A DNA stretch of 64,000 bases from the NCBI GenBank assembly GCA_964016885.1, contig OZ024740.1, positions 239,444,001-239,508,000 on the forward strand, written 5' to 3'. This document shows positions 2,153 through 60,779 of the stretch, piece after piece (the stretch's first letter is position 1; each line of letters opens with the position of its first letter). The position numbers and the translations under genes are program-made. The notes beneath the pieces are model-generated. The model did no database searches. It saw only the letters and a program-made list of their open reading frames with translations, and was not told the DNA's origin. This stretch comes from Eledone cirrhosa (Eukaryota).

Positions 2153-2229
2153 GTGTTTGTGTGTGTGTGTGTGTATACATACATGCATACATCAACTGAT
2201 CTGTACAACTTAGCTAAATATGCCATAAA

Positions 2230-2916: not shown

Positions 2917-2960
<44 letters not shown>

Positions 2961-28660: not shown

Positions 28661-28717
28661 GTATGTATGTATGTATGTATGTATGTATGTACGTATGTAT
28701 GTATGTATCTATTTTAG

Positions 28718-35668: not shown

Positions 35669-35776
35669 AATTATTATTATTATTATTATTGTTATTGTTA
35701 TTCCTTGAATCTCAGTCATTGATGTTGGTTAACTGGAAAGTCCGTTGGATTGAATATCAAGCCACTACCTGCAGCC

Positions 35777-38700
35777 TCAGATATTCAGGACGTATCGGAG
35801 GGTTCTTGCCGTTCCAAGCAAGCATGCCTTTTGAAGCGTTCCAAAAAGCGTGAAGGGGCCGATTTTCTTTAACCATCCCTGGAAACCTTTGGAGATAGTC
35901 CCCAGTGCGCCTATGACAATCGGGATCACTTTGACTTCATGGCAGTTCCAAATCCTTTTCACCTCCCACTTTAGGTCCTGGTATCGGTTAATTTTCTCCC
36001 TCTCCTTCTCTTGCACTCTCGTGTCGAACGGGCAGGCCACATCCACAATCAGGCACGATCTTTTTTCTTTGTCCACAACCACTAGGTCAGGTCTATTGTG
36101 TTCCAGTTTTTTGTCCGTCTGTATCCTAAAATCCCACAGCACCTTCACCTGACTGTTCTCCATCACCGCATCTGGCCTATGCTCATACCATTTCTCAGAA
36201 TGTGGTAGATTGTTTACTTTGCACAGGTGCCAGTGGATCACCCTGCCCATCACATCGTGTCTCCAGCCCTTATAGTGGGTCTGGGCTAGGTGTTTACACT
36301 CGGACACAATGTGAGCCACAGTCTCCTCTCTCTCTCCACAGATCCTGCACAGTGGGCTAGCCTCCTCCTTGTAGATATGGTGCTTCAACCACTTCGTTTT
36401 GAGGGCCTGCTCCTGCGCAGCCATTAGCATTCCTTCTGTAGCCTTTTTGAGGTCTCCTCTTCTCAACCAGTTCCATGTCTGTGGATCTCTAAATTCAGTT
36501 TTCTCAAAGAAGGTACTATGAAGGGATTTTCCCTTAAGGCTGCTCTTCCTCCTTGATGTTATTTCCTCCTTGGGTATCCCCTGGCCTACTGTCCCCTCCT
36601 TCAGTACAGCTCTGAGCATTGGCTCCTTACTATAGGTCACGTATTTGTATAGGTTGTTTTTCTCCATCTGAACACAGTCCTCTATGCTGATAAGACCTCT
36701 TCCACCCTCAGATCTCCTTAGGTAGAGTCTATCGACATCACTCCTCTTGTGGAACATGTTGTAGATAGTCAATAGCTTCCTAGTCTTCCTATCCATTTCT
36801 TTTTGTTCAGCAACATTCCATCTCAGAATTCCCGCACTGTACCTAATAATAGACACAGCTCGGGAATTTACTGCGCTTATGGCATTTCTGCTGTTCAGAT
36901 GTGACTTCAATACGCTCCTTACTCTCCGAATGTATTCAGTTCTTAACAATTCCTTCATTTTTTTGTTCTTTATGCCATCAGCCTCCAGAACGCCCAAATA
37001 CTTGTATCCTTCCTCAGAGTCAATTTCCTTTATCATCTCACCTGTTGGTATCTGGATCCCGTTACTTCTGCTCAACCTACCCCTCCTCATCACAATGACT
37101 CCACATTTACCAATACCAAACTGCATACATATATCACTGCTGAAAATACGGACAGTGTCAACAAGCACATCCAACTCCTTCTCACTTTTCCCGAAGAGCT
37201 TAAGATCGTCCATGAAGAGGAGGTGATTGATGGTAAGCTCTCCCCTTCCCAACTTGTATCCTGCTCTCACTTTTCGCAGCATAATGGTCAAGGGCATCAG
37301 GGCAAGGACAAACAACAGAGGGGACAGGCTATCTCCCTGGAAGATACCTCTCTTGATCTTCACGCTTCCCAAGGATACTCCAGTTGATGTCAACTCTGTC
37401 TCCCAGGACCCCATACTCCTGCCCAGCAACTGTCTGATGTTATCTGCCACCCTGAAGATCTCCAGGCTTTTGGTGATCCAGGAATGAGGCACCATGTCAA
37501 ATGCCTTTCTGTAGTCTATCCATCCCATGGCAAGATCAGTGTGTCTCCTCCCGCAATTCCCCATTACCATCTTATCAATAAGCAACTGGTCCTTTGTACC
37601 ACGTGACTTCTTTCGGCATCCTTTCTGTTCGTCCGGCAACAAGTTGTTTGTGTGGAGGTGATGGTAGATTTCCTCAGACACAATGCTCGTCAACAGTTTC
37701 CACATTACGGGCAGACATGTGATAGGTCTATAGTTGGTAACATCATTACCCTTGATTCGGTCTTTCATTATCAGAACTGTGGTACCTTTTGTCAACCACT
37801 CTGGCACCTCACCCGACACCAAGCAGTCATTGAACATGGCCGTCAGCTTCGGGTGGAGGGATGTTAAATGTTTAATCCAATACCCCTGCACACCATCTGG
37901 GCCTGGTGATTTCCAGTTGGTTAGTTTTTTGGCTTGCCCCTTAAGAGTTTCAACTGTGATACTCAAATCAGTCTGTTGCTGTGCCTGCTCACCGATCTCC
38001 CTCTGTACTGTCTCAATCCACCCTGCCTGGGCATTGTGTCTAACATCCTGCTCCCATATTCCTCTCCAGAATGTTTTAGCTTGTTCCGCCCCAGGGATCA
38101 AGTCGTTGCCTCTTTCTTTCCCCTCAAGCTGTCCAAACAGCATCTTCTGGTTGTTGTCGAACATGCGGTTCTGTTTATACTGACTGACTCTGTTCTCGTA
38201 TCGCCTGATTTTGGCACTCTTTGCTACAATGCGTTGCTTCAATTCCTCTATGATAATATTTAGCTTTTTACTCCTAGTTTTGTATTTTATTTCCAGTCTA
38301 TTTTTAGTGCCTATGTTTTTTAGTGTCCCATTCAGTAGTGACTCAAGCTTTCCTATGTCATTTCTCATTTCCTCGATTTGCCCACTCAGTCGCTTCTTCC
38401 ACCACGGCTCTGCTCTTTCTTGTCTGTTGTTTCCTCTCGCTTTTATACCAAGTAGTTTCCTCACCGTATTTGCTGTTGCTTTGAGGATATTGTTGCACTG
38501 GTGAAGACTCCTCGCCTCAAGGTATGGGATGACTTTGTTTACCTTAGCTGTTGTTTCTTTTAACTTTTTCCTGTCTACAAATCTTAGGTTCATAGGTCTC
38601 CCACTATCATTGTTCAACTCATCTACCACTAAATTTAGGATGTCAACCGAATCTTGTCCTAGCCCGTCAGCATTCATCTCCTCAGTGGCCGTATCTCTGT

Positions 38701-39169
38701 TCCAGGTATTATTTATCTCAGTATTCAGATCATTGTCTGCTTCGGGTGGTTCCTCCGTTCTCAGGACCTCCTCACCTTCATTTCCCGCCGGCTCGCTTGT
38801 CTGGCATACTACACCCGCCATCTCCAAGCCATTCTCTCTGCTCAGTTCCTCCAGTTCCAGCTCGCTTATCCACCCATTAGTTCTTATTACCCGAGCCTGC
38901 CCGGCCAATTTTTGTTCATCTAATTTAAATAAACCAATCTCGTTCCAGATGTTATGCATCCGTCTCCTGTAGCCCCTCTCCTTGGGGTTACTTTTCAGGT
39001 AGCATTGCATAACAGTTCTATTCAATTCTTTCGTCCAGTTGGTTCTGGCCCCTTTCCTTCTTCTTCTTCCTCCAACATCAGCAGTATTTGGTTGACAGTC
39101 AGGTTCCTGCTGCTGAGCCAGGGGGCACCTGTTGGGTGAGAGTCTGTCACATGACGTTCTAGTCTCCAT
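35777..39169 (-). CDS. Dong/R4-type polyprotein (1130 aa): N-terminal Myb-like region, RT, CCHC knuckle and restriction-like endonuclease
   Basis: N-terminal NWTKELN..CY..GYRRRMHNIW; RT motifs KSPGPDG, YRPITCL, WIDYRKAFD, GIFQGDSLSP and LFMDD; knuckle CRIC..ETVAHIVSEC; RLE motifs RHD..NRPDLVV..DVACP..EK..Y and PIVIGALG. Confidence 0.97.
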   Translation of the reverse strand: METRTSCDRLSPNRCPLAQQQEPDCQPNTADVGGRRRRKGARTNWTKELNRTVMQCYLKSNPKERGYRRRMHNIWNEIGLFKLDEQKLAGQARVIRTNGWISELELEELSRENGLEMAGVVCQTSEPAGNEGEEVLRTEEPPEADNDLNTEINNTWNRDTATEEMNADGLGQDSVDILNLVVDELNNDSGRPMNLRFVDRKKLKETTAKVNKVIPYLEARSLHQCNNILKATANTVRKLLGIKARGNNRQERAEPWWKKRLSGQIEEMRNDIGKLESLLNGTLKNIGTKNRLEIKYKTRSKKLNIIIEELKQRIVAKSAKIRRYENRVSQYKQNRMFDNNQKMLFGQLEGKERGNDLIPGAEQAKTFWRGIWEQDVRHNAQAGWIETVQREIGEQAQQQTDLSITVETLKGQAKKLTNWKSPGPDGVQGYWIKHLTSLHPKLTAMFNDCLVSGEVPEWLTKGTTVLIMKDRIKGNDVTNYRPITCLPVMWKLLTSIVSEEIYHHLHTNNLLPDEQKGCRKKSRGTKDQLLIDKMVMGNCGRRHTDLAMGWIDYRKAFDMVPHSWITKSLEIFRVADNIRQLLGRSMGSWETELTSTGVSLGSVKIKRGIFQGDSLSPLLFVLALMPLTIMLRKVRAGYKLGRGELTINHLLFMDDLKLFGKSEKELDVLVDTVRIFSSDICMQFGIGKCGVIVMRRGRLSRSNGIQIPTGEMIKEIDSEEGYKYLGVLEADGIKNKKMKELLRTEYIRRVRSVLKSHLNSRNAISAVNSRAVSIIRYSAGILRWNVAEQKEMDRKTRKLLTIYNMFHKRSDVDRLYLRRSEGGRGLISIEDCVQMEKNNLYKYVTYSKEPMLRAVLKEGTVGQGIPKEEITSRRKSSLKGKSLHSTFFEKTEFRDPQTWNWLRRGDLKKATEGMLMAAQEQALKTKWLKHHIYKEEASPLCRICGEREETVAHIVSECKHLAQTHYKGWRHDVMGRVIHWHLCKVNNLPHSEKWYEHRPDAVMENSQVKVLWDFRIQTDKKLEHNRPDLVVVDKEKRSCLIVDVACPFDTRVQEKEREKINRYQDLKWEVKRIWNCHEVKVIPIVIGALGTISKGFQGWLKKIGPFTLFGTLQKACLLGTARTLRYVLNI

Positions 39170-39742
39170 TTCACCGTTATTCGAACTGTTTATGTTCGAT
39201 ATTTAAACACTCTTATCGAGGATTGGCGAATGTATGTTTACATAGCCATCTGTGGATCCGCCATCCCACTTGGCCCTTGTGTGGCATTATCACCACGCTG
39301 TATACGGACACACATAAACAAACAAACACACGGGCAGAAAGGGCCCCAAAAATGAATAAGCATAAGTTTCATTGTAATGTAGTATTCGAATGTCTGACTT
39401 AGTTTTTGTTTTTTAAGTTTTACTTTTTCCCCCCTCTTCTCTGTCCGTCCGCCTGCTTCTCTCTTCATTCTTATTTTCTTTACGTTTTTGGGGTGTCTTT
39501 TTTTGTTTTTGTTTTTCTCTGTTTGTTTTTCTCGTTTTTTGCTGTTGTTGCTGTGCTGCTTTTGTTGTTTGTTTTTTCTTTTTTCTTTTGAGTCTATCTA
39601 TATATTTTGATGCCTTCCTCTTTGTTAGTAGTAGGAATTCTATAATGTGGAAGTGGCAGCCAGCAGAGACTGGCGGCGTTGGCGATACTGAGACAGTGGT
39701 GGTGGTGATGTCGATACCGAGGCAGTGGTGGCGGTGATGCGA

Positions 39743-40386
39743 CCGTATTACTGTAGTGATGGTGCTGTAGCGGTGGCAGCAGCAGTGAAGGAGTCAAGGG
39801 GTGGTGGCGGCGGTGATGGGATAGTGGTGGTAATGATGGCCGTAGTGAGCGGTGGCGGTGAAGGTGAAAATGCTGTTGTGTTTAGTGTACACAGATGATG
39901 GGGTGGGTGGTGTATCTAGTTTCTGGTGTTGGTGAGTTTCGCTGTCCTATATAGTGTAGCCAGAGGAGAGGAGGGGGGGGGGGGGTTCTTCTTCTTCCAT
40001 TTATAGCCATTTTATTTTTTTTGGATATACAGTGTACAATACAAAGTTGAATATTTGAATATTTGAGCCGTATTACTGTAGTGATGGTGCTGTAGCGGTG
40101 GCAGCAGCAGTGAAGGAGTCAAGGGGTGGTGGCGGCGGTGATGGGATAGTGGTGGTAATGATGGCCGTAGTGAGCGGTGGCGGTGAAGGTGAAAATGCTG
40201 TTGTGTTTAGTGTACACAGATGATGGGGTGGGTGGTGTATCTAGTTTCTGGTGTTGGTGAGTTTAGCTGTCCTATATAGTGTAGCCAGAGGAGAGGGGGG
40301 GGGGGGTTCTTCTTCTTCCATTTATAGCCATTTTTTTTTGGATATACAGTGTACAATACAAAGTTGAATATTTGAATATTTGAGCC
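39743..40386. repeat. Tandem duplication of two ~320-bp units
   Basis: CCGTATTACTGTAGTGATGG...GAATATTTGAGCC occurs at 39743 and 40068. The units differ mostly in homopolymer lengths. Confidence 0.92.
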
Positions 40387-40560
40387 TTATAACAATATAT
40401 TTTGGGTCCGAATTTTTTTGGGGCTCAAGCCGGGTGCTTTACGTAGCATTTGTACTAAGAGTTGTTATTTCACAAATGATTTAAATATGTTAAAAATTCA
40501 AAACTTACGGGAGCGATTTCATGACCTCCGTCACCTCGTGCGTCTTCTTCCCTTATTCCC

Positions 40561-40601
<41 letters not shown>

Positions 40602-40700
40602 GAATGCCATGGTTGACGGAGGCTCGGCTCTGTAAGGTATAGTAAATTTTAACCCTTAAAACAATTGTAAATTGTTTAAAACTTGAACCAAATTGTTGAT

Positions 40701-40766
40701 AAAGACACCCTCCTCCTCGTGAGAGGGGTCTTTCTGTCCGTTATTTGGCCCTTCGGGGTTAAATAA
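40701..40766 (+). promoter_or_regulatory. Two stem-loops in the Tx1 5' UTR
   Basis: AAAGACaCCCTcCTC-ctcgt-GAGAGGGGTCTTT and TTATTTGGCCC-TTCG-GGGTTAAATAA (C-UUCG-G tetraloop). Both are largely retained in copy D (55495-55558). Confidence 0.55.
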
Positions 40767-40814
40767 TCAGTTATTGGGGTTTTGTACCCAAAATTTCATT
40801 TTAAACAAAAAAAC

Positions 40815-42914
40815 ATGGCTACCAAAAAAAAAAAATTTCATACGTCACTCCCACTCATTCCGTCTTCTTCTTCCTCAATCATCACTACAGGAGAGAGAAG
40901 ATTGTCTCTCTCCCTCCCTTCTTTAAATGTGTCTCTCTCCCTACCTTCTCTTTCGCAAGCGACGAAAGAAAAGAAAAGTCTCGTGCAAAGCGTGCAAGGT
41001 TTCTCCACGACGACGACGACAGCGACGAAACAGGTGTGCGGGAAATACGAAAACCCAGTTCATTCGTCTGACGTCAGGAATAATAGCAGTAGCAGCCGTA
41101 ATAACAACAGCAACAGTGACAATGAAAACAACAGTAGCAGCCGCAACAGCATCACCAGCAGCATAAACAACAACAGCATTAGCAGCAGCAACACCAACAA
41201 CAACCACAGCAACAGCGGCGGAGGCAGTAGTCGTAGTACCTGCAGCAACAACAAAAGTACCAGCAGCTCTGACGACAACAACAACAGCAGAGAAAAACCA
41301 ATCTCATTTGCAGGTATTGCGAAAAACCTGGAAACAATCCTCATAACAAATGAGGAATTAGAGGAAGCGAAGAAGATGGTGACAAAGAACGGACACCGAG
41401 CAATCTGCAAGGCAGCGAAAAATTTTTTCGAAACCCAAGAGCACTGTACGGTCACGTACCGTACAGTAAGTACAAAATCCCGTAGGGTGGAAAGAGCCAC
41501 AGAGGCCCAAATACAAAAAGCCTTGGGGTCTGTGTGGCAGAGGAAAACGCACATCACCCGAGGCAAAAAATACGCCACCGTAGACGTACTTTTTGCCACA
41601 CCCCAGGAGGCAAAGGCCCAATCAGTAGTGACCCTAAGGAGCGAGGAAATGGTGTTGGTGCCCTCCTACTGCGGGCAAAAAATTGTGAGGGTCAAACTGA
41701 CCCACGTCCCCCCCGGAATGACCCCTTCTTGGCTGGCCGCGTCTGTCCTCGTCGGAATCGAGGACAAAACAACTGTACTGCAAGTACAGAAAAAAGTAAG
41801 AGAAGATTGGGTCGGCTCCTCCATTGAGATGCTAATCCAAACCAACCAGGAGTGCATCGAAGCTATCCCGGATGTGATAGACTTCGATAACGGCACTCAA
41901 CTGCCCATAAGTGTTGAGGGCAAACGCCCGAAATGCTTTCGCTGTGGATCGAAGACTCACCTCAGGGCCTTCTGCAACGAGAAGACCCTGAGAAAGGAGA
42001 AAACCCCCCTCCTCCCGAATCCGGTTCCACGGCTACCAGCAACAGGACAAGCGGCAACCAGGAACGATAGGTCCGTGGCACCCATACCCACTCCACGGAA
42101 ATCAAAGACAGCAGCAGCAGTGGAAATATTAACAACAACAACAGCAATACCAAATGCAGCTGCAACAGAGACTCCAGTGCAAACATCACCAACAACAACA
42201 AGTGAAAGAGTGGAGCTGGTACCCCTCCCCGACCTTACAGAATCAGACATGGAGTGTGAGGTGGGAGAGGGATGGCAAAAGGTCTCAAGAAGGCACAAAC
42301 GCAGAAGCAGCGCATCGTCGCCTTTGAAAAGGGAGGAAAGAAATGAGAAAAGGGTAAAGTCTACTGCAAAGAGACCCACAGCAGCAACACCACCAACACC
42401 ATCACCACCCACACCAGCACCACCATCACCACCGGCGACAACCCCACCGCCAACAACACCTTCAACACCACCACCACAAGCACCAACATCGCAAACACAA
42501 CAACAAAACACACACACCCAGCAACAACGACAAGAAAATAGCAGAACCACACCCCACCCCCAGAAAAACAAATGCACGGCAATAAACACACACAACAAGA
42601 AACTAATGACTTACATAATTGAACACACAGACATTTCACAACAGGACTACATAATACCAGCACCAATCAAAACGCCAACTAACATAAGACTGCTAAAAAT
42701 AGCACAGAAACAATACACAAACATTAAAACGAAATTTCCCAACGCAGTTGGTGATTTCAGGGACCTAGGAGGAACCATTAATCGAAGAGTATATTCAGAC
42801 ATTCTCTTAGAAGAGCCGACGACCAGCCGAAGGGACGATTCAACGGTCCCTTCACCAGACGATCAAGTGAAAAGGGATGTAAAAACCATCCCTCCTCTAC
42901 CAAAAATACGGTAA
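40815..42914 (+). CDS. Tx1 ORF1 protein (~699 aa from the ATG at 40815): gag-like RNA-binding protein with a zinc knuckle
   Basis: Ser/Asn low-complexity N-terminus, RRM-like segment (KYATVDVLF), CX2CX4HX4C knuckle CFRCGSKTHLRAFC, basic stretch and Pro/Thr-rich tract. The MATKK start is also present in copy D. Confidence 0.92.
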   Translation: MATKKKKFHTSLPLIPSSSSSIITTGERRLSLSLPSLNVSLSLPSLSQATKEKKSLVQSVQGFSTTTTTATKQVCGKYENPVHSSDVRNNSSSSRNNNSNSDNENNSSSRNSITSSINNNSISSSNTNNNHSNSGGGSSRSTCSNNKSTSSSDDNNNSREKPISFAGIAKNLETILITNEELEEAKKMVTKNGHRAICKAAKNFFETQEHCTVTYRTVSTKSRRVERATEAQIQKALGSVWQRKTHITRGKKYATVDVLFATPQEAKAQSVVTLRSEEMVLVPSYCGQKIVRVKLTHVPPGMTPSWLAASVLVGIEDKTTVLQVQKKVREDWVGSSIEMLIQTNQECIEAIPDVIDFDNGTQLPISVEGKRPKCFRCGSKTHLRAFCNEKTLRKEKTPLLPNPVPRLPATGQAATRNDRSVAPIPTPRKSKTAAAVEILTTTTAIPNAAATETPVQTSPTTTSERVELVPLPDLTESDMECEVGEGWQKVSRRHKRRSSASSPLKREERNEKRVKSTAKRPTAATPPTPSPPTPAPPSPPATTPPPTTPSTPPPQAPTSQTQQQNTHTQQQRQENSRTTPHPQKNKCTAINTHNKKLMTYIIEHTDISQQDYIIPAPIKTPTNIRLLKIAQKQYTNIKTKFPNAVGDFRDLGGTINRRVYSDILLEEPTTSRRDDSTVPSPDDQVKRDVKTIPPLPKIR

Positions 42915-42949
42915 GTGGTCTTTCCCATCTTTTCCACTCTATTTTAAAC

Positions 42950-45900
42950 ATGACCTCACTCAGAATAGGCAGCATAAATGCGCGTGGCTTGGGGTCGTCA
43001 TGGAAGCAGGGTCACCTGCTCAACGACCTCAGGTCACTAAACATAGATGTAGTGGCCATCAGCGAGACCAGAATCTCCGAAGCACGGGCCTTCGCACCGA
43101 TCTTCGGCGGCTACGATGTGTACGCATCTCCCAGCCGTCCTGGATCCGGTGGAGGAGTTGCTGTACTTTTTCGGAGAGGTTTGGATCTCGCCATACGGGC
43201 CATCTTCCTGGACCCAGAGGGTAAGCTGGTGGTGCTGGACGTGACCAGCGGAGACGGGCAAGCCTTCAGGCTAGTGGCCGTCTATGCCCCGACAGGAGCA
43301 GGGCGGCCTGATTTCTTCCGGCGTCTGGAGACCTTTCTTGGAACGTCCCGCTCTTTAGTGTTAGTGGGCGACTGGAACGGGATCTTAGATGCACGCTGGG
43401 ACTGTGTGGGATTAGCGGATAGGGGTGGAGGGTGCAAGAGCCTCACCAACCTGCTCAGGCGTTTTGAACTGTCTGACAGGTACCGATTGGATTTCCCGAA
43501 TGTGCCAATGTGGACTTGGACAAACCGCATAGGGTCATCCAGATCATATCTAGATAGAGTATTTTGTAGGGAAATAGATAGGTCTAGCATAGGCTGTCCA
43601 CAATTCAAGATAGTCAGCTACACGGACCACAAATTCGTGATCTGTGTGCTTGACTTAGATAGGCTTCATAGACGAGGACCCGGCTACTGGAAGCTAAACG
43701 CGTCCTTACCAGCGCGCAAGGCCTACAGAGACCGGATTAGCGAACTAGTTAAGCGGGCGTTGACGGGGGCCATCGTCAACAACAAGTGGTGGTTTGCTCT
43801 GAAAAGAGCGATTAGAATAGAATCGATTAGGTTTAGTAAGGCTTTAGCAATAGAGAAAAATAGAGCAGAGGGAGAACTAGTTAGAAAATTAGACGAGGCG
43901 CTTAGCAAAGGCATTGCGACCGACGTGCTTGCGGCGAAATTGGCCCTTGACCAATTCTTCAATGCAAAGCACGAAGGCTGCGTTGTCAGAGCTAGGGTGC
44001 GTGCTCTCAGACACGAGGGGACGAAAGCCGTTCAATGGGCCCGAGTGGCGGAGGCGCGTCGTGGCAACAAAGCCACGATCCGGTCTTTGGTGGACCACGA
44101 CGGGCGCATGCTACTCGATCCCGGGCAAATGTGTGAAGCTTTTCAGCGACACTTCGCTCAGCTGTTCGGGGGCAGCGGGGGGCCGGGTAGAGGGATGGAC
44201 TTTAGTGTCTACCTCGACGGACTGCCGCGGCTCTCGGCCACTGAGGCGAAGTGTTGCGAAAAGCCGATAACAGCCGCTGAAGTAAGGGAGGCAATGACTG
44301 GCTGCACAAGGGGTAAATCGCCTGGTTTGGATGGTCTGCCCTATGAACTTTACGTACAGATGCCAGACTTGTTCGGAGGCCTCTTGGCGGACGTCTACTG
44401 CAACTGGCAACAGAACGGGAGAATTCCCAGTTCTGTGAGCCGAGGAGCGGTGGCACTGCTGAGAAAGGATCCGAACAAGGGGGATAACATAGACAATTTC
44501 CGGCCCATAACTCTGCTAAACACAGAGTTTAAGATTTTGGCCAAGGTGCTAGCAAAGAGGTTGGCGCTTGTCGTTGGTGGTCTGGTGGGAGAGGCGCAGA
44601 CATGCGCCATTCCCGACAGATCCATCCACGACAACCTCCACCTCATGCGATACATCGTAGAGAGGGTAGCTAGGGAACCTGGCACGGGTGGGTCCTTGAT
44701 CAATTTAGATCAGTCGAAAGCTTTCGATAGGGTCGACCATCGTTACCTAGCGGCAGTCCTGAGGGCGGCTGGCTTTGGGCCCGTCTTCAGAGGCTGGATC
44801 GCTGCCATGCACAGCGACATCTGCTCTGTGGTGAGAGTGAACGGTCACCTGTCGGAACCGTTCAACATCATGCGCTCGGTCCGCCAAGGATGTCCCCTCT
44901 CGTCCCTCTTGTACGTATTGACTCTCGAGCCATTACTGCACAAACTGGAGACGTTGAGGGGAGTCCCGCGCGAACTAGGATGCGGAAGATCCGTGTCAGC
45001 ATATGCGGACGATGTCACCGTAGTGGTGTCGAACGCCAAACACATCGAGGCGATCGGCACTACACTAAGAGAATACGAAGCGGTGACAGGAGCAATGATC
45101 AACCAGGAAAAGTCAGTGGGCCTGCAGCTCGGCACCTGGAGAGGCAGGTCCATGCCGTCCAACAGCGTCGTCGGGCGCTGGACGGACGGACCGGTTAAAT
45201 TGCTAGGGGTCTGGTTCGGTCCGGACCTCCAGACGGACAAAAACTGGGACGAGGTGACGAGCAGGGTGGCTTCTCTCACCCAGAAATGGGCGGAGAGGAA
45301 GCTATCCCTGAAAGGTCGAGCGGAGGTGGCTAACGCGTACATCGCGTCTGTCATCTGCTACCGCCTAACCGTCGTACCTTGTCCTAAGCCTCGCCTGACT
45401 GCGCTGGAGCGTTTGCTCTTTCGCTTTTTGTGGAAGGGACGTGCTCCGATGGTCAGGCGGTCCATCTGTTGTCAACACCCGCTACGTGGAGGGCTGGGCA
45501 TGCCGTGGCTGATGATGCGCAGGCACGCGCTCAGGCTACGACATCTCCACCTCTTCCTCGACGGTGATCAGGTGTGGTCGCCGTTTGCTAGACGCGTTTT
45601 TCCCCAGCTCGTTTCCTTGACGGAGCTGCAGTCCTGGGTCAAGCGAAGACCGAGAGGGAGCGCCTGGAGACTGGAATGTCTTCAGGCGCTCACAGCCCTC
45701 GACCAATCGGGCAATGTGATCGGTGGAAACTCCACCTCGGCGTTCTATAGAGGATTAGTGGAGGGGAAGAGCGACGACGTACTTGGGGAAACTCTAGGCG
45801 TCGACGAAAATCAACTAGCCAATCTCTTCGGAAGAACCTTCGGGCCAGGGCCTATGGACAACTTCCAGAAATCTCTGGCCTGGCAGTGCTACCGAGGAGC

Positions 45901-46369
45901 CTTGCCAGTTCGGGATAAACTCTACAGGCATGGAGGTGCCGTCAGCCGGGCATGTCCGAGATGCGCGCAGGGCGACGAAACCGTCCTGCACGCACTCGTC
46001 CAGTGTCCGAAAATTGCTGACTTGTGGGTTTATGTCGAACACCTGCTGTCGCGTTTAGGACGGATCCAGCTATCATCTGAGTCTATCGTGAGGATTGCCC
46101 CGCCCTCCTCCTTTAGCCGGGAAGGGCAGGCAGTTTTTATCTGTCTGGTGGCCATGGCGAAAGAGATAGTATGGTGGACACGTTTGAAAGGGCTGAAGAC
46201 GAGCACTTACCTCTTCGGTGATGCTCTGATTGACTTTTTCAAATTTCATTTGAAAAGGAAAATCAGAGTAGAGAAGGAAGTGCTCTCTTCCCAGCATTTT
46301 GTTGAAAGATGGGTGAGAGAAGCAAGAATGGCCCGAGTGAATGGGCCGACTCTGAGTATATATCTGTAA
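42950..46369 (+). CDS. Tx1 ORF2 protein (1139 aa): APE endonuclease, RT and C-terminal zinc finger
   Basis: APE motifs SINARG, ISETR, GGVAVL, VYAP, VGDWN, SYLDRV and TDH; RT motifs GKSPGLDGLP, FRPITLLN, LDQSKAFDRV, RQGCPLS and YADD; C-terminal CPRC..ETVLHALVQC. Confidence 0.97.
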   Translation: MTSLRIGSINARGLGSSWKQGHLLNDLRSLNIDVVAISETRISEARAFAPIFGGYDVYASPSRPGSGGGVAVLFRRGLDLAIRAIFLDPEGKLVVLDVTSGDGQAFRLVAVYAPTGAGRPDFFRRLETFLGTSRSLVLVGDWNGILDARWDCVGLADRGGGCKSLTNLLRRFELSDRYRLDFPNVPMWTWTNRIGSSRSYLDRVFCREIDRSSIGCPQFKIVSYTDHKFVICVLDLDRLHRRGPGYWKLNASLPARKAYRDRISELVKRALTGAIVNNKWWFALKRAIRIESIRFSKALAIEKNRAEGELVRKLDEALSKGIATDVLAAKLALDQFFNAKHEGCVVRARVRALRHEGTKAVQWARVAEARRGNKATIRSLVDHDGRMLLDPGQMCEAFQRHFAQLFGGSGGPGRGMDFSVYLDGLPRLSATEAKCCEKPITAAEVREAMTGCTRGKSPGLDGLPYELYVQMPDLFGGLLADVYCNWQQNGRIPSSVSRGAVALLRKDPNKGDNIDNFRPITLLNTEFKILAKVLAKRLALVVGGLVGEAQTCAIPDRSIHDNLHLMRYIVERVAREPGTGGSLINLDQSKAFDRVDHRYLAAVLRAAGFGPVFRGWIAAMHSDICSVVRVNGHLSEPFNIMRSVRQGCPLSSLLYVLTLEPLLHKLETLRGVPRELGCGRSVSAYADDVTVVVSNAKHIEAIGTTLREYEAVTGAMINQEKSVGLQLGTWRGRSMPSNSVVGRWTDGPVKLLGVWFGPDLQTDKNWDEVTSRVASLTQKWAERKLSLKGRAEVANAYIASVICYRLTVVPCPKPRLTALERLLFRFLWKGRAPMVRRSICCQHPLRGGLGMPWLMMRRHALRLRHLHLFLDGDQVWSPFARRVFPQLVSLTELQSWVKRRPRGSAWRLECLQALTALDQSGNVIGGNSTSAFYRGLVEGKSDDVLGETLGVDENQLANLFGRTFGPGPMDNFQKSLAWQCYRGALPVRDKLYRHGGAVSRACPRCAQGDETVLHALVQCPKIADLWVYVEHLLSRLGRIQLSSESIVRIAPPSSFSREGQAVFICLVAMAKEIVWWTRLKGLKTSTYLFGDALIDFFKFHLKRKIRVEKEVLSSQHFVERWVREARMARVNGPTLSIYL

Positions 46370-46630
46370 ACTAAAGGTGGAAAACTGGGAGAGGGCACTT
46401 GCCTTGGTGGTCAGGGTCATTGTGGCTTTTTACTGGGCTTTCTCCACAAATGTCCCTCCGAAGTCTCCCCCCTATTGGGGAATTTTTCATTGTTATTTTC
46501 ATTGTTATTTTTGTTACATCCTCTATTTTTGTTTTTTTTACACGCAGAAATGCCCATTTGTACCGTCCTGCATTGTCCTGCACTGTCCTTAATGTCTACT
46601 TTATGTAAACCCTTGTGGTTAATAAAGAAA

Positions 46631-46704
<74 letters not shown>

Positions 46705-48863
46705 GTTCTTTGAGTCTCAGTCATTGATGCTATTTAACTGGAAAGTTTGTTGAAATGAATATCAAGCTGCTACCTGCAGCCTCAGATATTCTGGACGTAT
46801 CGGAGGGTTCTTGCTGTTCCCAGCAAGCATGCCTTTTGAAGTGTTCCAAAAAGCGGGGCGGGACTAACTTTCTTTAACCATCCTTGGAAACTCTTTGAGA
46901 TAGTACCTAGTGCGCCTATGACAATCGGGACTACTCTGACTTCATGGCAGTTCCAAATCCTTTTTACCTCCCACTTTAAGTCCTGGTATCGGTTAATTTT
47001 CTCCCTCTCCTTTTCTTGCACTCTCGTGTCAAATGGGGAGGCTATATCTACAATCAGGCACGATCTTTTTTCCTTGTCCAAAACCACCAGGTCAGGTCTA
47101 TTGTGTTCCAGTTATCCGTCTGTATCCTAAAATCCCACAGCACCTTCACCTGATTGTTCTCCATCACCGCCTCTGGCCTATGCTCATACCACTTCTCAGA
47201 ATGTGGTAAATTGTTTACTTTGCATAGGTGCCAGTGGTTCACCCTGCCCAACACATCATGTCTCCTGCCTTTATAGTAAGTCTGGGCTAGGTGTTTACAC
47301 TCGGATACAATGTGAGCCACAGTCTCCTCTCTCCACAGATCCTACACAGTGGGCTAGCCTCGTACTTGTAAATATGGTGTTTCACCCACTTCGTTTTGAG
47401 TGTCTGATCTTGCGCAGCCATTAGCATTCCTTCTGTAGCCTTTTTAAGGTCTCCTCTTTTTAACCAGTTCCATGTCTGTGGATCTCTAAATTCAGTTTTC
47501 TCAAAGAAGGTACTATGAAGGGATTTTTCATGAAGGTTGCTCTTCCTCCTTGCTGTTATTTCCTCCTTGGACATCCCTTGTCTATTGTTCTCTCCTTCAG
47601 TACAATTCTGAGCATTGGCTACCTACTGTCGGTCAGGTATTTGTGCCGGTTGTTTTCTCCATCTGAACACAGTCCTCTATGCTGATAAAATCTCTTCCAC
47701 CTTCAGATCTCTTTAAGTAGAGTCTATCGACATCACTCCACTTGTGGAACATGTTATAGATAGTCATAAGCTTCCTAGTCTTCCTATCCATTTCTTTTTG
47801 TTCAGCAACATTCCATCACAGAATTTCCGCACTGTACCTAATAATAGACACAGCTCGGGAATTCACTGCACTTATGACATTCCTACTATTTAAACGTGAT
47901 TTTAATACGCTCCTTACTCTCCTAATGTACTCAGATCTTATAAATTAATTCCTTCATTTTTTTGTTCTTGATATCATCTGCCTCCAGAACACCTAAATAT
48001 TTGTATCCTTCTTCAGTGTCAATTTCCTTTATCATCTCACCTGTTGGTACCTGAATTCCGTTGCTTCTGCTCAATTTACGCCTCTACCTCACAAGGACTC
48101 CACACTTATTAATACCAAATTGCATACATATATCACTGCTGAAAATACGGACAGTGTCAACAAGTACATCCAACTCCTTCTCACTCTTCCCAAAGAGTTT
48201 AAGATCATCATGAAGTGGAGGTGGTTGATGGTAAGCTCTCCTTTTCCCAACTTATATCCTGCCCTCACTTTTCGCAGTATAATGGTCAGGGGAATCAGGG
48301 CAAGGACAAACAACAGAGGGGACAGACTATCTCCCTGGAAGATACCTCTCTTGATCTTCACGCCTCCCAAGGATTCTCCACCCGATGTTAATTCTGTTTC
48401 CCATGACTTCATACTTTTGCTCAACAACTGTCTGATGTTATCAGCCACCTTGAAGATCTCTAGGTTTTTGGTTATCCAAGAATGAGGTACCATGTCGAAT
48501 GCCTTTTTGTAATCTATCCATCCCATGGCAAGACCAGTGTGTCTCCTCTTGCAATTCCTCATTACCATCTTATCAATAAGTAACTATTCTTTTGTACCAC
48601 GGGATTTCTTTCGGCATTCTTTCTGTTCGTCCGGTAACAAGTTGTTTGTGTGGAGGTGATGGTAGATTTCCTCAGACACAATGCTTGTCAACAGTTTCCA
48701 CATTACGGATAGACATGTGATAGGTCTATAGTTGGTAACATCATTACCCTTGATTCGGTCTTTCATTACCAGAACTGTGTACCTTTTGTCAACCACTCTG
48801 GTACCTCACCTGACATCAAGCAGTCATTGAACATGGTTGTCAGTTTCGGGTGGAGGGATGTTA
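46705..48863 (-). mobile_element. Dong-like copy 4: diverged subfamily, 5'-truncated and frameshifted (~2.15 kb)
   Basis: Broken ORFs at 46782-48796 are homologous to the RT-RLE ORF. It lies tail-to-tail with Tx1 copy B across one TTA tract. Confidence 0.93.
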
Positions 48864-48880
48864 TATTATTATTATTATTG

Positions 48881-49226: not shown

Positions 49227-49594
49227 ATGGATAACACAAGAAAGAGAGAGAACGCTGTCAGACAACACAGAGAGAGGGAGACTTCATCAGCATGTCATCA
49301 AGACAGCGTTCCAGCGGAGGTAAATATAAACGAAAATATTACTAAGGAAAAGAAGATTGTTACAGATTTAAAATTAACAAATATTTCTAACACAAACAAC
49401 ACCAACAATTACACCAACAACAACACCATCGATAACAACAGCAACAACAAAAATAACAGCGGAAAGGTCGAGAACGACAATAACAATGACAATAACAACA
49501 GCCACAACAACAATAATAGTAGGAACAGTATAAACAAAAACAACAATAATAACAACAGCCACAATAACAGTAACAACAGCAACAGTCTCAACGA

Positions 49595-49641
<47 letters not shown>

Positions 49642-52600
49642 GTACCAACGAAAATATCAACAATGACATCAATACCTGTAATAGCGATCTCAGCACCACA
49701 AGTAAGACCAGTAGCGGCAGCAATAGTGGTGCTGCTGAAAAAGGGACCACTTCTTTTGCAGGTGTCGCCCAAAATATCGAGACAGTGTTAGTCGCAGAGG
49801 AGGAGATGGCAGTCGCAAGGGCCATGGTGACAAGAAGCGCCAATAGAGTCTCCCTGAAATTTCCACCCGATTTTTTCAAGGACCAGCAGCTACGGACGGT
49901 GACTTACCGCACCGTAAGCAAAATCTCACATCGGGTGGAGAGAGCCACGAGGGCTCAAATCCCAAAGGCCTTGGGGTGCGTCTGGGCACGCAAAACCCAC
50001 ATCACCCGAGGCAGAAAGTACGCCACAGTAGACGTACTTTTCGCCACCCCCCAGTCTCACTCTTTGGAAACCCTGAAGAGTGAGGAGATAGTCTTGGTGC
50101 CCTCCTACTGCGGGCAGAAAATTGTGAGGGTCAAAGTGACCCAGGTCCCACCCGACGTGCCTATACCTTGACTGGCCGCGTCTGTCCTTGCTGGAATCGA
50201 GAACAGGACGACCATGCTGCAAGTAGAAAAAATAGGGAGAGAGAACTGGTCAGGTATAGACATGCAAATGCTTATACAAACTGACCGGGAATGTATCGAC
50301 GCTATCCCCGATATCATAGACATCGAGGAAGGACTCCAACTCCCTATAAGTGTAGAAGGAAGACGGCCAAAATGTTTTCTGTGTGGGTCGAAGGGTCACC
50401 TCAGGGCCTTTTTCCCGCAGAAGGCAGCGAAGAAGAAGGCCCCTCTTCTTCCAATACCTGGTCCGCTGCTACCATGAACAGGGCAGGCAACAAACGCAGA
50501 AGCCCCTTCCACGGTGAGTAGGAGGGAAGCGTCCGTAGCACCCGTACAAAGGCCACGGACAACTAAAGCAGCATCATCAGTGGCGGCAACACCAATAGCT
50601 ACATTTGAAGTAGCTACACCAGCGACAAAATGGCCGAAGAGGGCTCCACTACCACCACCAACAGCCGTGGAGCACATACCCCTCCCAGACGCCACAGAAT
50701 CCGACATGGAGTTTGAGGCGGGAGTGAAGTAGCAAACGGTCTGCCACAAAAGACAAAAAAGAAAAAAACCCTTAGATTCACCTTCCAAAAGCAAAGGCAT
50801 ACAAAGAGGGGGTAAAGGCAGCAAGGAAACTTGCAGCAACACCACCACCATCACCACCACAAGCACCACTCACAACAACAACCACACCACCACCAGCATC
50901 ACCAAAAACACCAACAACGCAAACACACCAAACAGCAACAAGAAGAAAACAGCAACAAAATCACCCCTCCCCCCAAAAAAGTACACAGCCATAAACATGG
51001 CAAAAAAAGAACTCATACAATATATAAAGCAGCACACAGACATCACAGAAAAAAACTACTACACCCCACCAACACCAAGAACTCTCCCGACAAACATAAG
51101 CATCATTGAAATCTCAATAGAACAGTACAAACCTTTAAAACAAAAATTCCCCAACGCTGTTGGAAATTTCAGAGGGTCGGTTACCAAGAGGATATACACT
51201 GACATACTCTTGGTAATACCCATGACCAGCGAAAGGGACGGTTCTACTGTCCCTTCACCACACGATCAAGGTAAGTGACCCTTTCTCACTTGACCCGTTT
51301 CTCGTCCAACATGGCCGTACTTAGAATAGGCAGTATAAATGCACGTGGCCTGGGGTCATCTTGGAAGCAAGGTCACCTGCTCAACGACCTCAGGTCACTA
51401 AACATAGATGTGGTGGCCATCAGTGAGACCAGAATCTCCGAAGCACAAGCCTTCGCACCGATCTTCGCCGGCTACGATGTATACACATCTCCCAGCCGTC
51501 CAGGATAGGGGGGGGGGGTGCCGTCCTTTTTCGGGGAGGCTTGGATCTCGCCATACGGGCCATCTTCCTGGACCCAGAAGGTAAGTCGGTGGTGCTGGAT
51601 GTGACCAGCAGCGAAGGCAATGCTTTCAGGCTAGTAGCCGTCTACGCCCCAACAGGGGTAGGACGGCCAGATTTCTTCAGACGTCTAGAGACCTTTCTTG
51701 GAACGTCCCGCTCTTTAGTGTTAGTGGGCGACTGGAACGGTATCTTGGATGCACGCTGGGATTGTGTGGGGCTAGTGGATAGGAGAGGAGGGTGCAAGAG
51801 CCTCACCAACCTGCTCAGACGTTTTGAACTGTCTGACAGGTATCGACTGGATCACCCGAATGTGACAATGTGGACATGGACAAACCGCATCGGGTCATCC
51901 AGATCGTATCTTGATAGGGTATTCTGCAGAGAACTAAATCAGGCTAGTATAAGTTGTCCACAATTTAAAATAGTCGACTACACAGACCACAAATTTGTGA
52001 TCTGTGAGATCGAGATAGACAGACTTCATAGACAAGGGCCTGGTTACTGGAAGCTGAACGCGTCTTTCCCGGCGCGCAAAGCCTACAGAGACCGGATTAG
52101 CGTATTAGTTAAGCGGGCGTTGACGGGAGCGGTCGTCAACAACAGGTGGTGGTTCGCCCTGAAAAGGGCAATTAAAGTAGAGTCGATTAGGTTTAGCAAA
52201 GGAGCAGTGATAGAGGAAAATAGAGTAGAGGGAGAGCTAGTCAGAAAGCTAGAAGAGGCGTTTAGGACAGGCATCGCAACCGACGTGCTTGCGGCGAGAT
52301 TGGCACTCGACCAATTCTTCAACGCAAAACACGAAGGTTGCGTTGTCAGAGCTAGAGCGCGTGCTCTGAAACACGAAGGGACAAAAGCCGTCCAATGGCC
52401 CCATGTGGCAGAGGCGCGACGTGGCAACAAAGCCACAATTCGGTCTTTGTCTGACCAAAATGGGTGCGTGATGCTTGAACCCGAGCGAATGTGTGAGGCT
52501 TTTCAGCAGCACTTTGCTGAACTGTTCGGGAGCAGCGGTGGCCCGGATCGGGGCGTGGATTTCAGTGCAGGCCTCGACGGACTGCCTCGGCTCTCGACGA

Positions 52601-54964
52601 CCGCAGCACAGTGTTGCGAAAAGCCAATAACAGCCGGTGAAATACGGGTAGCGATGGCTAACTGCACAAGGGGTAAATCGCCAGGTTTGGATGGTCTGCC
52701 TTACGAGCTTTATGCATTTATGCCAGACTTGTTCGGTAACCTCTTGGCACACGTCTACTGCAACTGGCAGCAGAACGGGAGCATTCCCAGTTTTGTGAGC
52801 CGGGGAGCAGTAGCGCTGCTGAGAAAAGACCCGAACAAGGGGGACGTTATCGATAATTTCAGGCCCATAACCCTGCTAAACGCAGAGTTCAAGATTTTGG
52901 CCAAGGTGTTAGCAACGAGGTTGGCGCTTGTCGTTGGTGGTCTGGTGGGAGAGGCGCAGACATGCGCCATTCCGGACAGATCCATACACGACAACCTCCA
53001 CCTCATGCGATACATCATAGAGAGGGTGGTTAAGGAACCTGGCACGGGTGGGTCCCTGATCAACTTGGATCAATCCAAAGCATTCGATAGGGTCGACCAT
53101 CGTTACCTGGCGGCGGTCCTCGAGGCAGCCGGTTTCGGGCCCGTTTTGAGGGGTTGGATCGCAGTAATGTAAAGCGATATCTGCTCAGTTGTGAGGGTGA
53201 ACCGTCCTCTGTCGCAGCCGTTCAGCATCATGCGCTCAGTCTGCCAGGGTTGTCCGCTCTCGTCCCTCATGTGCGTATTGGCTCTCGAGCCGTTACTGCA
53301 CAAATTGTGGACGATGAGGGGCGTCCCACGCAAACTAGGATGCGGGAAATCCGAGTCGGCTTGCGCCGACGACTTCACCGTGGTGGTGTCAAGCACCAAA
53401 CACGTCCAGATGCTCGGCACCGCTCTCAAGGAATACGAAGCCGTGACAGGAGCAAAGATAAACCAGGAAAAGTCGGTGGGCTTGCAGCTCAGCACCTGGA
53501 GAGGCAAGTCCATGCCGTCCGACAGCGTCGTGGGGCGTTGGACGGACGGACCGGTTAAATTGCTCGGGGTCTGGTTCGGACCGGACCTCCAGATGGAGAA
53601 AAACTGGAACGAGGTGACGAGCAGGGTGGCCTCCCTAAACCCAGAAATGGGCCGAGAGGAAGATGTCCCTGAAAAGCCGGGCGGAGGTGGGGAATTCGTA
53701 CATCGCATCCGTCATCTGCTACCGCCTCACCGTCGTCCCTTGCTCCAGCCCAACTCTCACCAAATGGAGCGCCTCCTCTTCCGCTTCTTGTGGAAGTGAC
53801 GCCCTCCCATGGTCAGACGATCCATCTGCTGTCAACACCCGTTGCGTGGAGGACTGGGCATGCCATGGCTGATGATGCGCAAACATGCGCTGAGGCTGCG
53901 ACATCTCTGGTGCTTCCTTGATGGTGAACAGGTGTGGTTGCCGTTCGCCAGGCACGTTTTCCCACAGCTCGTCTCCTTGACGGAGCTGCAGTCCTGGGTC
54001 AGAAAAAGACCGAGGGATAGTGCTTGGAAACTGGAATGTCTCCAGGCGCTCACTGCCTTCTGCCAGCTGGGCCCCAGAATCGGTGGAACATTCACCTCGG
54101 CGTTCTATAGAGGTCTAGTGGAGGGGAAGAGCGACAACATTCTCGGAGAGATTCTGGGAGTCGAAGAAGATCAGCTGTTTGCTCTCTTCCGGAGAACTTT
54201 CAGCCCGGGGCCTATGGATAATTTCCAAAAATCCCTGGACTGGCAGTGCTACCGGGGAGCGCTGCGGGTTCGAGAAAAGCTCTACAGGCACGGAAGTGCC
54301 ATCAGCCGAGCCTGTCCGAGATGCGCGCAGAGCAACGAAACCGTCGTGCACGCACTCGTTCAGTGCCCAAGCATTGCTGACTTGTGGAGCTATGTCGAAC
54401 AGTTGCTGTCGCGTGTAGGACTGATCCGGTTGTCGACTGAGTCCATTGTGCAGATGGTCTCGCCGTCTTCCTTCGAGGTGGCCATGGCGAGAGAGATTGT
54501 GTGGTGGACAAGCTTAAAAAGGGTTAAAGACTGACACTTTCCTCTTCGGCGAATCCCTAATTAACTTTATTAGGTTTCACTTAAAGAGGAAAATCAGGGT
54601 GGAGATGCAAGTGCTGCCTTCTAGCAAGTTTGTTGTAGGTGGGTGAATGTAGGTACGTCTGTAGTTTGAGAGATGGAAAAATTGAGAGAGGGCGTTTGCC
54701 CTGGTGGTCAGGGTGGCCGTGGTCTTATGTGTGGTTTTCGCCACGAGTAACCCTCGTAGGTTTCCCCCTATTAGGGAACTTTTCATTGTTTCAATTTTCA
54801 TTTTTTTGTTTATATATATATATATGTTTCTATGTCCTTTTTTTTTCTTTTCTATAAATAATAAAAAATATTTACACGCACAAAACCCACATCGTACCGT
54901 CCTGTACCGTCCTGTGCCGTCTGTAATGTTTTTCTTGATGTCAGCCCTTGTGGCCAATAAAAAA
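49227..54964 (+). mobile_element. Tx1-type copy C: diverged subfamily lacking the 5' UTR, with multiple stops and frameshifts
   Basis: ORF1 pieces at 49227-51278 and ORF2 pieces at 51311-54660 are homologous to copy B. It ends CCCTTGTGGCCAATAAAAAA(TTA)n. Confidence 0.93.
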
Positions 54965-58300: not shown

Positions 58301-60779
58301 GACAAATCGCATAGGTTCGTCCAGATCATATCTAGATAGAGTATTTTGTAGGGAAATAGATAGGTCTAGCATAGGCTGTCTACAATTCAAGATAGTCAGC
58401 TACACGGACCACAAATTCGTGATCTGTGTGCTTGACTTAGATAGGCTTCATAGACGAGGACCCGGCTACTGGAAGCTAAACGCGTCCTTACCAGCACGCA
58501 AGGCCTACAGAGACTGGATTAGCGAACTAGTTAAGCGGGCGTTGACGGGGGCCATCGTCAACAACAAATGGTGGTTTGCTCTGAAAAGAGCGATTAGAAT
58601 AGAATCCATTAGGTTTAGTAAGGCTTTAGCAATAGAGAAAAATAGAGCAGAGGGAGAACTAGTTAGAAAATTAGACGAGGCGCTTAGCAAAGGCATTGCG
58701 ACCGACGTGCTTGCGGCGAAATTGGCCCTTGACCAATTCTTCAATGCAAAGCACGAAGGCTGCGTTGTCAGAGCTAGGGTGCGTGCTCTCAGACACGAGG
58801 GGACGAAAGCCGTTCAATGGGCCCGAGTGGCGGAGGCGCGTCGTGGCAACAAAGCCACGATCCGGTCTTTGGTGGACCACTCGATCCCGGGCAAATGTGT
58901 GAAGCTTTTCAGCGACACTTCACTCAGCTGTTCGGGGGCAGCGGTGAGCCGGGTCGAGGGATGGACTTTAGCGTCTACCTCGACGGACTGCCGCGGCTCT
59001 CAGCCACTGAGGCCGAGTGTTGCGAAAAGCCGATAACAACCACTGAAGTAAGGGAGGTAATGACTGGGTGCACAAGGGGTAAATCGCCTGGTTTGGATGG
59101 TCTGCCCTATGAACTTTACGTACAGATGCCAGACTTGTTTGGAGGCCTCTTGGCGGACGTCTACTGCAACTGGCAACAGAACGGGAGAATTCCCAGTTCT
59201 GTGAGCCGAGGAGCGGTGCCACTGCTAAGAAAGGATCTGAACAACGGGGATAACATAGATAATTTCAGGCCTATAACTCTGCTAAACACAGAGTTCAAGA
59301 TTTTGGCCAAGGTGCTAGTAAAGAGGTTGGCGTTTGTCGTTGGTGGTCTGGTGGGAGAGGCGCAGACATGCGCCATTCCCGACAGATCCATCCACGACAA
59401 CCTCCACCTCATACGATACATCGTGGAGAGGGTAGCTAGGGAACCTGGCACGGGTGGGTCCTTGATCAATTTAGATCAGTCGAAAGCTTTCGATAGGGTC
59501 CACCATCGTTACCTAGCGTCAGTCCTGAGGGCGGCTGGCTTTGGGCCCGTCTTCAGAGGCTGGATCGCTGCCATGCACAGCGACATCTGGTCTGTGGTGA
59601 GAGTGAACGGTCACCTTTCGGAACCGTTCAACATCATGCGCTCGGTCCGCTAAGGATGTCCCCTCTAGTCCCTCTTGTACGTATTGACTCTCGAGCCATT
59701 ACTGCACAAACCGGAGACGTTGAGGGGCATCCCGCGCGAACTAGGATGCGGAAGATCTGTGTCAGCATATGCGGACGATGTCACCGTAGTGGTGTCGAAC
59801 GCCAAACACATCGAGGCGATCGGCACTACACTAAGAGAATACGAAGCGGTGACAGGAGCAATGATCAACCAGGAAAAGTCAGTGGGCCTGCAGCTCGGCA
59901 CCTGGAGAGGCAGGTCCATGCCGTCCAACAGCGTCGTCGGGCGCTGGACGGACGGACCGGTTAAATTGCTAGGAGTCTGGTTCGGTCCGGACCTCCAGAC
60001 GGACAAAAACTGGGACGAGGTGACGAGCAGGGTGGCTTCTCTCACCCAGAAATGGGTGGAGAGGAAGCTATCCCTGAAAGGACGAGCGGGGGTGGCTAAC
60101 GCGTACATCGCGGGCATGTCCGAGATGAGCGCAGGGCGACGAAACCGTACTGCACGCACTCGTCCAGTGTCCGAGCATCGCTGACTTGTTGGTTTATGTC
60201 GAACACCTGCTGTCATGTGTAGGACGGATCCAGCTATCAGCTGAGTCCATCGTGAGGATTGCCCCGCCCTCTTCCTTTAGCCGGGAAGGGCAGGCAGTTT
60301 TTATCTGTCTGGTGGCCATGGCGAAAGAGATAGTATGGTGGGCACGTTTGAAAGGGCTGAAGACGAGCACTTACCTCTTCGGTGATGCCCTGATTAACTT
60401 TTTCAAATTTCATTTGAAAAGGAAAATCAGGGTAGAGATGGAAGTGCTCTCTTCCCAGCATTTTGTTGAAAGATGGGTGAGAGAAGCAAGTATGGCCCGA
60501 GTGAATGGGCCTACTCTGAGTGTGTGTCTGTAAATTAAATATGGAAAACTGGGAGAGGGCACTTGCCCTGGTGGTCAGGGTCACTGTGGCCTTTTAATGG
60601 GCTTTCTCCACAAATGTCCCTCGGAAGTCTCCCCCCTATTGGGGAATATTTCATTGTTATTTTTTTTATTACATCCTCTGTTTTTTTTACACGCAGAAAT
60701 GCCCATTCGTACAGTCCTGCATTGTCCTGCACTGTCCTTAATGTCTACCTTATGTAAACCCTTGTGGTTAATAAAGAAA

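Follow-up and report, generated by a model that had tools for sequence, protein, structure and literature searches.

The 64,000-nucleotide stretch of Eledone cirrhosa DNA analysed here (the window; assembly GCA_964016885.1, contig OZ024740.1, positions 239,444,001 to 239,508,000, forward strand) contains a full-length long interspersed nuclear element (LINE) with two open reading frames (ORFs), designated family A, which lies between two (ATT)n microsatellite tracts. It is accompanied by copies of related families, by short interspersed nuclear elements (SINEs) and by Dong/R4-like elements in the opposite orientation (Table 1). Family A is an intact, recently multiplied LINE present in thousands of copies, and its insertion specificity is a strong, although not strict, preference resting on the short motif Y^ATTAT.

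Table 1. Features of the window (UTR, untranslated region; TSD, target-site duplication; RT, reverse transcriptase).
Feature	Position	Strand	Remarks
Family A, full-length element	40602..46632	+	6031 bp; 5′UTR 213, spacer 35, 3′UTR 263
(TTA)13, 5′ junction	40561..40601	+	Common to 5′ end of minus-strand Dong-like element; reads ...TTATT|GAATGC
ORF1	40815..42914	+	699 aa, open; CCHC knuckle (CX2CX4HX4C) at aa 374-387, low-complexity ends
ORF2	42950..46369	+	1139 aa, open; APE endonuclease, RT (YADD at 45002), C-terminal zinc knuckle
3′ hairpin AACC-CTTGT-GGTT	46608..46620	+	Predicted; loop common to sister families and SINE, stems may covary
Element 3′ terminus	46621..46632	+	AATAAA, then GAAATC
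(ATT)n, 3′ flank	46633..46704	+	(TTA)23 at 46634; also 3′ flank of minus-strand Dong-like piece
Family B copy	49227..54964	+	77% nt identity; 5′-truncated at its own ORF1 ATG; ORFs broken
Older family A copy	55394..60781	+	95.5%; frameshifts and internal deletion of ~600 bp
Family C copy	28955..31093	+	ORF1 ~58% aa identity; internally deleted; inserted behind SINE
tRNA-like SINE	22355..22539	+	B-box at 22431; 12-bp TSD starting ATTAT; Tx1-like 3′ end
Longer SINE variant	28717..28933	+	Last 26 nt equal the element end at 16 positions
Dong/R4-like element, intact, single ORF	35703..40552	-	ORF 35777-39169, 1130 aa; same microsatellite, opposite orientation
Dong-like copy, 5′-truncated	46710..48866	-	Tail to tail with family A element
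Dong-like copies, stacked, 5′-truncated	32883-33977, 34038-35491		(TTA)n between them

As stated by the first-pass annotation, which was made from the letters of the stretch, both ORFs of family A are open and the catalytic motifs of ORF2 are in place: N10, E39, Y113, GDWN140, D202 and DH226 of the APE endonuclease, and QGCPLS646 and YADD685 of the RT. The Pfam domains Exo_endo_phos, RVT_1 and zf-RVT were identified in ORF2, with a C-terminal CCHC motif at aa 1002; ORF1 gave no Pfam match above the cutoff. In Atlas, ORF2 fell into generic RT clusters only, and the centre of ORF1 resembled ZCCHC3-type RNA-binding domains (0.90-0.93 to CCHC and ZCCHC3-RBD clusters, for part of the protein), which is taken as a lead only. 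The ORF1 of Tx1-clade elements has RNA-binding domains plus a CCHC knuckle. The best solved-structure match of ORF2 was human L1 ORF2p (E 2.7e-52 over aa 5-854), with R2 at 1.3e-21, few clades being represented. On the basis of two ORFs and an ORF2 with N-terminal APE, RT and C-terminal zinc knuckle, which are the characters of the L1/Tx1 group, the element is by its sequence an L1/Tx1-type APE-RT LINE. It has neither the single ORF without APE of Dong/R4 elements nor the poly(A) tail and T-tract primer of canonical L1, and its junctions are ATT, unlike the targets of Kibi and Koshi, (CTT)n being found only past the ATT run in 6 of 59 5′ flanks. The closest named homologues were proteins of Argonauta hians (60-73% identity over partial stretches), and in a quick-method tree of 44 rows the element stood in a five-row clade with Argonauta and unnamed proteins only. 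No named Tx1 reference was among the homologue matches, and the element is a putative member of the Tx1 clade. One homologue cluster (P0137) held eleven Patella caerulea members, ~30% identical, whose near-consecutive locus tags may point to a target-specific relative arrayed in tandem in this limpet.

The four copies in the window, previously described as copies of one element, belong to three families: A (40602 and 55394), B (49227-54964) and C (28955-31093). In the comparison of family B, 7 of 20 loci failed the filter; the family C copy ending at 31093 has a degenerate ATTATTCTTATT as its 3′ end. The AATAAA signal stops 6 nt short of the repeat in the element at 40602 and ~2 nt short in the copy ending at 54964, and poly(A) is absent from all four copies, in agreement with the earlier description. 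The (TTA)n repeats that had been noted at the four 5′ junctions are indeed present, but the one near 28945 flanks a SINE on its 3′ side, and the other three (40561, 49204 and 55374), like the 3′ repeat at 46634, also border minus-strand Dong-like pieces. As most of its junctions are common to Dong-like neighbours, the window alone could not prove targeting. Neither this confound nor the SINE partner had been noticed in the first-pass annotation.

The confound is removed by genome-wide junction counts. A 26-nt query for the 5′ end gave 2369 genomic matches, 2291 (96.7%) of them directly behind ATTATTATT, i.e. (ATT)3|GAATGC, and a 27-nt query for the 3′ end gave 3568 matches, of which 2961 (83%) run on as ATTATTATT, i.e. 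(ATT)3, and 83 deviate at the sixth flank base. Reversed-pattern controls gave 0 matches, and as background 47 of 376 YATTAT sites in flanking DNA extend as ATTATTATT. Among the first 40 3′ ends on chromosome C1, a sample in whose choice the flank played no part, all 17 full-length copies had a 5′ repeat of at least 3 units, and 35 of the 40 3′ flanks began with ATTAT. Both percentages lie above the level at which a family has been termed target-specific, namely one target in >20% of flanks (Kojima 2015, PMC4494074). The proposed (TTA)n direction is therefore confirmed as a strong preference, whereas specificity for the microsatellite as such was overstated, since the short motif underlies it. 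Copies ending mostly in poly(A) at non-repeat sites, the pattern named beforehand as contrary to such specificity, are not what the genome contains: A8 within 25 nt of the 3′ end was found in 14 matches at 10 loci, and none of the seven A-rich ends inspected was a poly(A) tail, five being A-expansions followed by C-ATTATT and two target sequence. Some of the counted 3′ ends are those of a further family, D (loci L237, L248, L254, L256 and L058), in which another 5′UTR and ORF1 are joined to the ORF2 and 3′ end of family A; the junction at element position 2265 amounts to an ORF1 swap close to the ORF1 end. Behind TTATT|G there are at least five different 5′ ends (L045, L170, L174 and window position 28955 among them), four tied to Tx1 ORFs and one unassigned, which suggests a radiation on one target.

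Whether the 3′ repeat is copied tail or target was decided at the junctions themselves. At non-repeat sites, defined by a flank that deviates after ATTAT (80 of 83 ATTATV loci fetched), a TSD of 9-19 bp beginning exactly at ATTAT flanked 30 of the 64 copies that lack a 5′ repeat, when mismatched-pair controls gave 0.6 (maximum 4) TSDs of at least 9 bp. As this set excludes tails by construction, its complement was examined, i.e. truncated copies with a 3′ repeat, and in 0 of 24 was a tail followed by a TSD; from these, as from the sites scored for the base preceding the TSD, sites right behind another element's end and family D junctions had been removed. For 56 of the 59 full-length copies, what lies beyond the 3′ repeat was not found ahead of the 5′ repeat, so that the repeat pre-existed and was at least TSD-long. 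At readable junctions, the sequence behind GAAATC is duplicated target, and 44 of 49 SINE TSD cases carried no extra ATT units. The 3′ (ATT)n is thus target DNA including a hidden TSD, and the U-rich tail that had been proposed in place of poly(A) is not borne out. Inheritance of tail variants was considered as proof of RNA templating and rejected, as copies 0-1 substitutions apart have no variant tail in common (L049 versus L063, L066 and L068). At locus L275 (690-836), a contig in runs X2 and X3, from one sample, begins at the TSD without element sequence; the check for an empty allele returned no joint row, and the contig, possibly an empty allele, is only a hint.

A C or T preceded the TSD at all 32 sites scored for the LINE and at 51 of the 54 scored for the SINE, the background being 271/474 (57%). 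The tested SINE carries A at this base, and RNA pairing therefore cannot produce the bias. Combined with the geometry of target-primed reverse transcription (TPRT; PMC2881922), the bias places a bottom-strand nick at 5′-ATAAT^R, and the endonuclease likely nicks there, on the A-rich strand, at a T-purine step as in L1, for which the consensus is 5′-TTTT/AA-3′ (PMC1950540). TPRT geometry, together with where the TSD lies, thus leads to the A-rich primer strand already suggested in the first-pass annotation. Nicking of the purine-rich strand is, judged from the pyrimidine-rich names of their targets, probably common to Kibi/Koshi-type elements.

Recent multiplication is evident from the copies. 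Among 40 scored of 269 candidates, selected for an identical 3′ 302 bp, both ORFs were kept in 30 of 35 full-length copies, and pairwise differences had a median of 14 per 6 kb among 36 copies. Zero substitutions separated L049 from L063 and L050 from L062, on different chromosomes (C1, C2), consistent with youth and with the earlier view of an intact, candidate active L1/Tx1-type element. The chromosome C1 sample spans a wider range of identity, most copies at 92-100%, and near-identical sequence was also present in contigs from runs registered with other organism codes. At L047-L049 (G000:C2:188.05-188.08 Mb) and elsewhere, full-length copies follow one another head to tail in tandem arrays; three equally spaced array junctions carry the variant ATTATTGTTGTT, as a result of either recombination or repeated TSD.

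The SINEs resemble the LINE in both their 3′ end and their insertion signature. The 186-nt SINE ends in GGCCTTGTGCC...AGAAAC, compared with CCCTTGTGG...AGAAATC in the LINEs, and in 107 of 138 cases its 3′ flank starts with ATTAT, LINE and SINE having in common Y^ATTAT and a TSD of 10-20 bp. Across sister families and SINE, the CTTGT loop is closed by AACC/GGTT, GCC/GGC, GGCC/GGCC and GGC/GCC stems of 3-4 bp, with double changes at two of three pairs and weak energy. Compared with the Tx1A end, the SINE end scored above shuffles (1 to 19 of 5000); compared with the Dong-like end, it did not, the shuffle count being 2080 to 3564 of 5000. As this sequence match is short and moderately significant, the hairpin and the common signature carry the argument, and because of these two the SINE is likely mobilised by the Tx1-type lineage, as a candidate non-autonomous partner. 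The SINE head gave no ARAGORN or Rfam match and the A-box pattern was not found in it, so that the term tRNA-like refers to the B-box and the appearance.

Taken together, we regard it as likely that family A is a young L1/Tx1-type LINE of (ATT)n, with a likely nick at ATAAT^R and likely recognition of a 3′ hairpin in common with the SINE. In such a scheme, the ORF2 protein would bind the CUUGU hairpin of the RNA, and the endonuclease would cut the bottom strand at ATAAT^R. The transcript would extend a few AUU units beyond GAAAUC, AAUAAA being so placed that cleavage would fall inside the repeat, and these read-through units would pair with the primer, over at most a few AUU nucleotides; any poly(A) would be skipped, as is reportedly the case for the I factor. 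The top strand would then be cut 9-19 nt downstream, and a full-length cDNA would likely end in (AAT)n, copied from upstream repeat RNA and annealing in register; the fixed ATT|G phase would result from this. Through longer pairing at both ends, full-length LINEs would come to lie in long repeats, a single ATTAT often being used by the SINE and by short fragments. Each insertion would leave a new ATTAT hot spot, giving rise to tandem arrays and to pile-ups with Dong-like elements. A still wider proposal, which we put forward tentatively and hold to be rather less probable than not, is a currently active animal L1/Tx1 lineage in which the CUUGU hairpin replaces poly(A) recognition, and AUU pairing at both RNA ends, in addition to the ATAAT^R endonuclease, directs full-length copies of 6 kb into microsatellites with single-base precision, the lineage also being the motor of the abundant octopod SINE.

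An unlikely rival is that endonuclease and DNA structure alone set the preference, without RNA pairing or leader, a sequence-specific second nick fixing the 5′ phase. The C/T preference ahead of the TSD, being independent of RNA, would fit this, as would the in vitro sequence specificity of the Tx1L endonuclease (PMC1950540) and the shortest of the common 5′ runs, which at 17-21 nt equal a plain TSD. However, TSDs vary from 9 to 20 bp when the 5′ phase is fixed in 96.7% of copies, SINE and LINE differ in their use of repeats, and at L196 the TSD is followed by ~40 nt of extra ATT ahead of the element, as a leader predicts. The fixed phase despite variable TSDs, together with L196, favours an AUU leader; slippage may also account for it, as may a second nick that is specific. 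It appears improbable that most of the 3′ (ATT)n is a tail templated by RNA, from read-through (UUA)n in place of poly(A): 18 of 24 truncated copies do have a 3′ repeat and no 5′ repeat, and 3′ runs are longer than 5′ runs (median 42 versus 29 nt), yet TSDs start right at the element end, none of the 24 has a tail followed by a TSD, 44 of the 49 SINE cases lack added units, and near-identical copies lack a common variant tail. Least credible, and largely refuted, is passive association, by which Dong-like neighbours or post-insertion growth supply the repeats of an untargeted LINE. Dong-like or other elements do adjoin most junctions of the window and, across the genome, many 3′ flanks; against this stand the single phase of the 2369 5′ ends, the strict Y^ATTAT at TSD sites, and the unclassified neighbours found on a given side in about half (32 and 34) of the 59 full-length copies.

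Several observations weigh against the preferred reading of a targeted LINE with a hairpin-sharing SINE. A TSD of at least 9 bp was missing at 34 of 64 non-repeat sites, and the TSD set was selected for the lack of a 3′ repeat, its copies being short (median 305 bp) and older, and may reflect sister families. Only 6 of the 24 truncated copies with a 3′ repeat also have a 5′ repeat, and the remainder show no TSD, so that target deletion or later rearrangement must be invoked; several truncated copies adjoin internal Dong-like sequence, a possible sign that the 5′ repeat was lost by deletion. The 5′ leader has one clear locus (L196) besides the phase, and slippage could explain it too. The hairpin has 3-4 bp, its consensus energy is -1.5 kcal/mol, and for some variants the fold of minimum energy is a different one. 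The SINE match covers 16 of 26 nt, the terminal segment ranking 2nd to 22nd of 6006, and at 23 of 30 SINE loci no repeat was found on either side.

The Dong/R4-like label of the neighbouring elements rests on architecture and target, not on a tree; their ORF gave no APE match. The (TTA)n repeat borders the 5′ end of the Dong-like element at 30 of 30 loci. This element is itself very young, as the 40 copies scored out of 1269 candidates were 100% identical over 166 bp of the 5′ end, and in the copy at 35703-40552 the long 5′ region contains a tandem duplication of 325 bp. The motif TGACGGAGG occurs within ~25 nt of the 5′ end in both the Dong-like element (40516-40545, minus strand) and family A (40602-40630, plus strand), and is possibly a common promoter motif, or chance. 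The 3′ flanks at L036, L077 and L251 have a recurrent minus-strand 3′ end (TGCATTTATC on the plus strand) behind (ATT)n, probably of a second (TAA)n-associated element.

Microsatellite-specific Tx1 elements are already known, i.e. Kibi in (TC)n, Koshi in (TTC)n and crocodilian Tx1 in (TTCC)n/(TTTC)n (PMC4494074, PMC3812793). Like family A they are APE-type Tx1-group LINEs, named by a pyrimidine-rich unit; compared by description only, family A differs in its (ATT)n target, mollusc host and very young copies. Dong, DongAg and DongBg target (TAA)n (PMC3812793), the same microsatellite as family A, and the Dong-like element uses the same sites in the same genome, although with one ORF, without APE and in the opposite orientation to the two-ORF, APE-bearing family A. 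Human L1 has a similar ORF2 layout, TSD size range and inferred T-purine scissile step, and is set apart by its poly(A), family A having an A-rich primer strand, CCHC in ORF1 and likely hairpin recognition.

A Tx1-SINE partnership has been argued for Tx1-Mar and SINEU from their common target (PMC4494074), but SINEU, which has an snRNA head, ends in poly(A), unlike the SINE here with its 3′ hairpin in common with the LINE and no poly(A). A common 3′ end with a covarying hairpin, as may be the case here, is described for UnaL2/UnaSINE, LINE1-1_ZM/ZmSINE2 and L1-1_CR/SINEX-3 (PMC3747384); compared with stringent LINE-SINE pairs, the common tail here is only ~22 nt. Table 1 of that source (2013) gives L1-clade partners in plants and algae only, with no animal L1/Tx1 and no mollusc pair, and in the literature searched no tail shared by an animal Tx1 and a SINE was found. 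The Drosophila I factor, which is of a different clade and has the sense-strand repeat TAA (PMC3747384), reportedly primes inside a trinucleotide repeat at the 3′ end of its RNA, as proposed here, and a comparable repeat-primer link has been proposed for Bov-B (PMC13295347). In Octopus vulgaris, L1-Tx1 and Dong-R4 elements have been recently active (PMC13282606, PMC8967140) and SINEs make up 11.6% of the genome (PMC13282606); in the relevant parts of these two accounts no target was found for these elements. No (ATT/TTA)n-specific Tx1 was found in the literature searched, a search outside Repbase and Dfam, which may list such a family. Neither the mollusc host nor the SINE partner turned up in the papers searched.

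How APE-type LINEs choose microsatellites is not well understood (PMC3812793), and family A offers thousands of junctions, a readable nick motif and intact young copies, with LINE versus SINE as a natural comparison that separates the share of the endonuclease from that of RNA pairing. With 2369 5′ ends to 3568 3′ ends, the yield of full-length copies is high, which makes it interesting with regard to gene insertion tools, and if the proposed pairing is true, target length would be tunable by the RNA flank. For the octopod SINE, here not matched to any published family, a candidate carrier is named, and if its partnership with the LINE is true, hairpin-type RNA recognition would be extended to animal L1/Tx1 elements.

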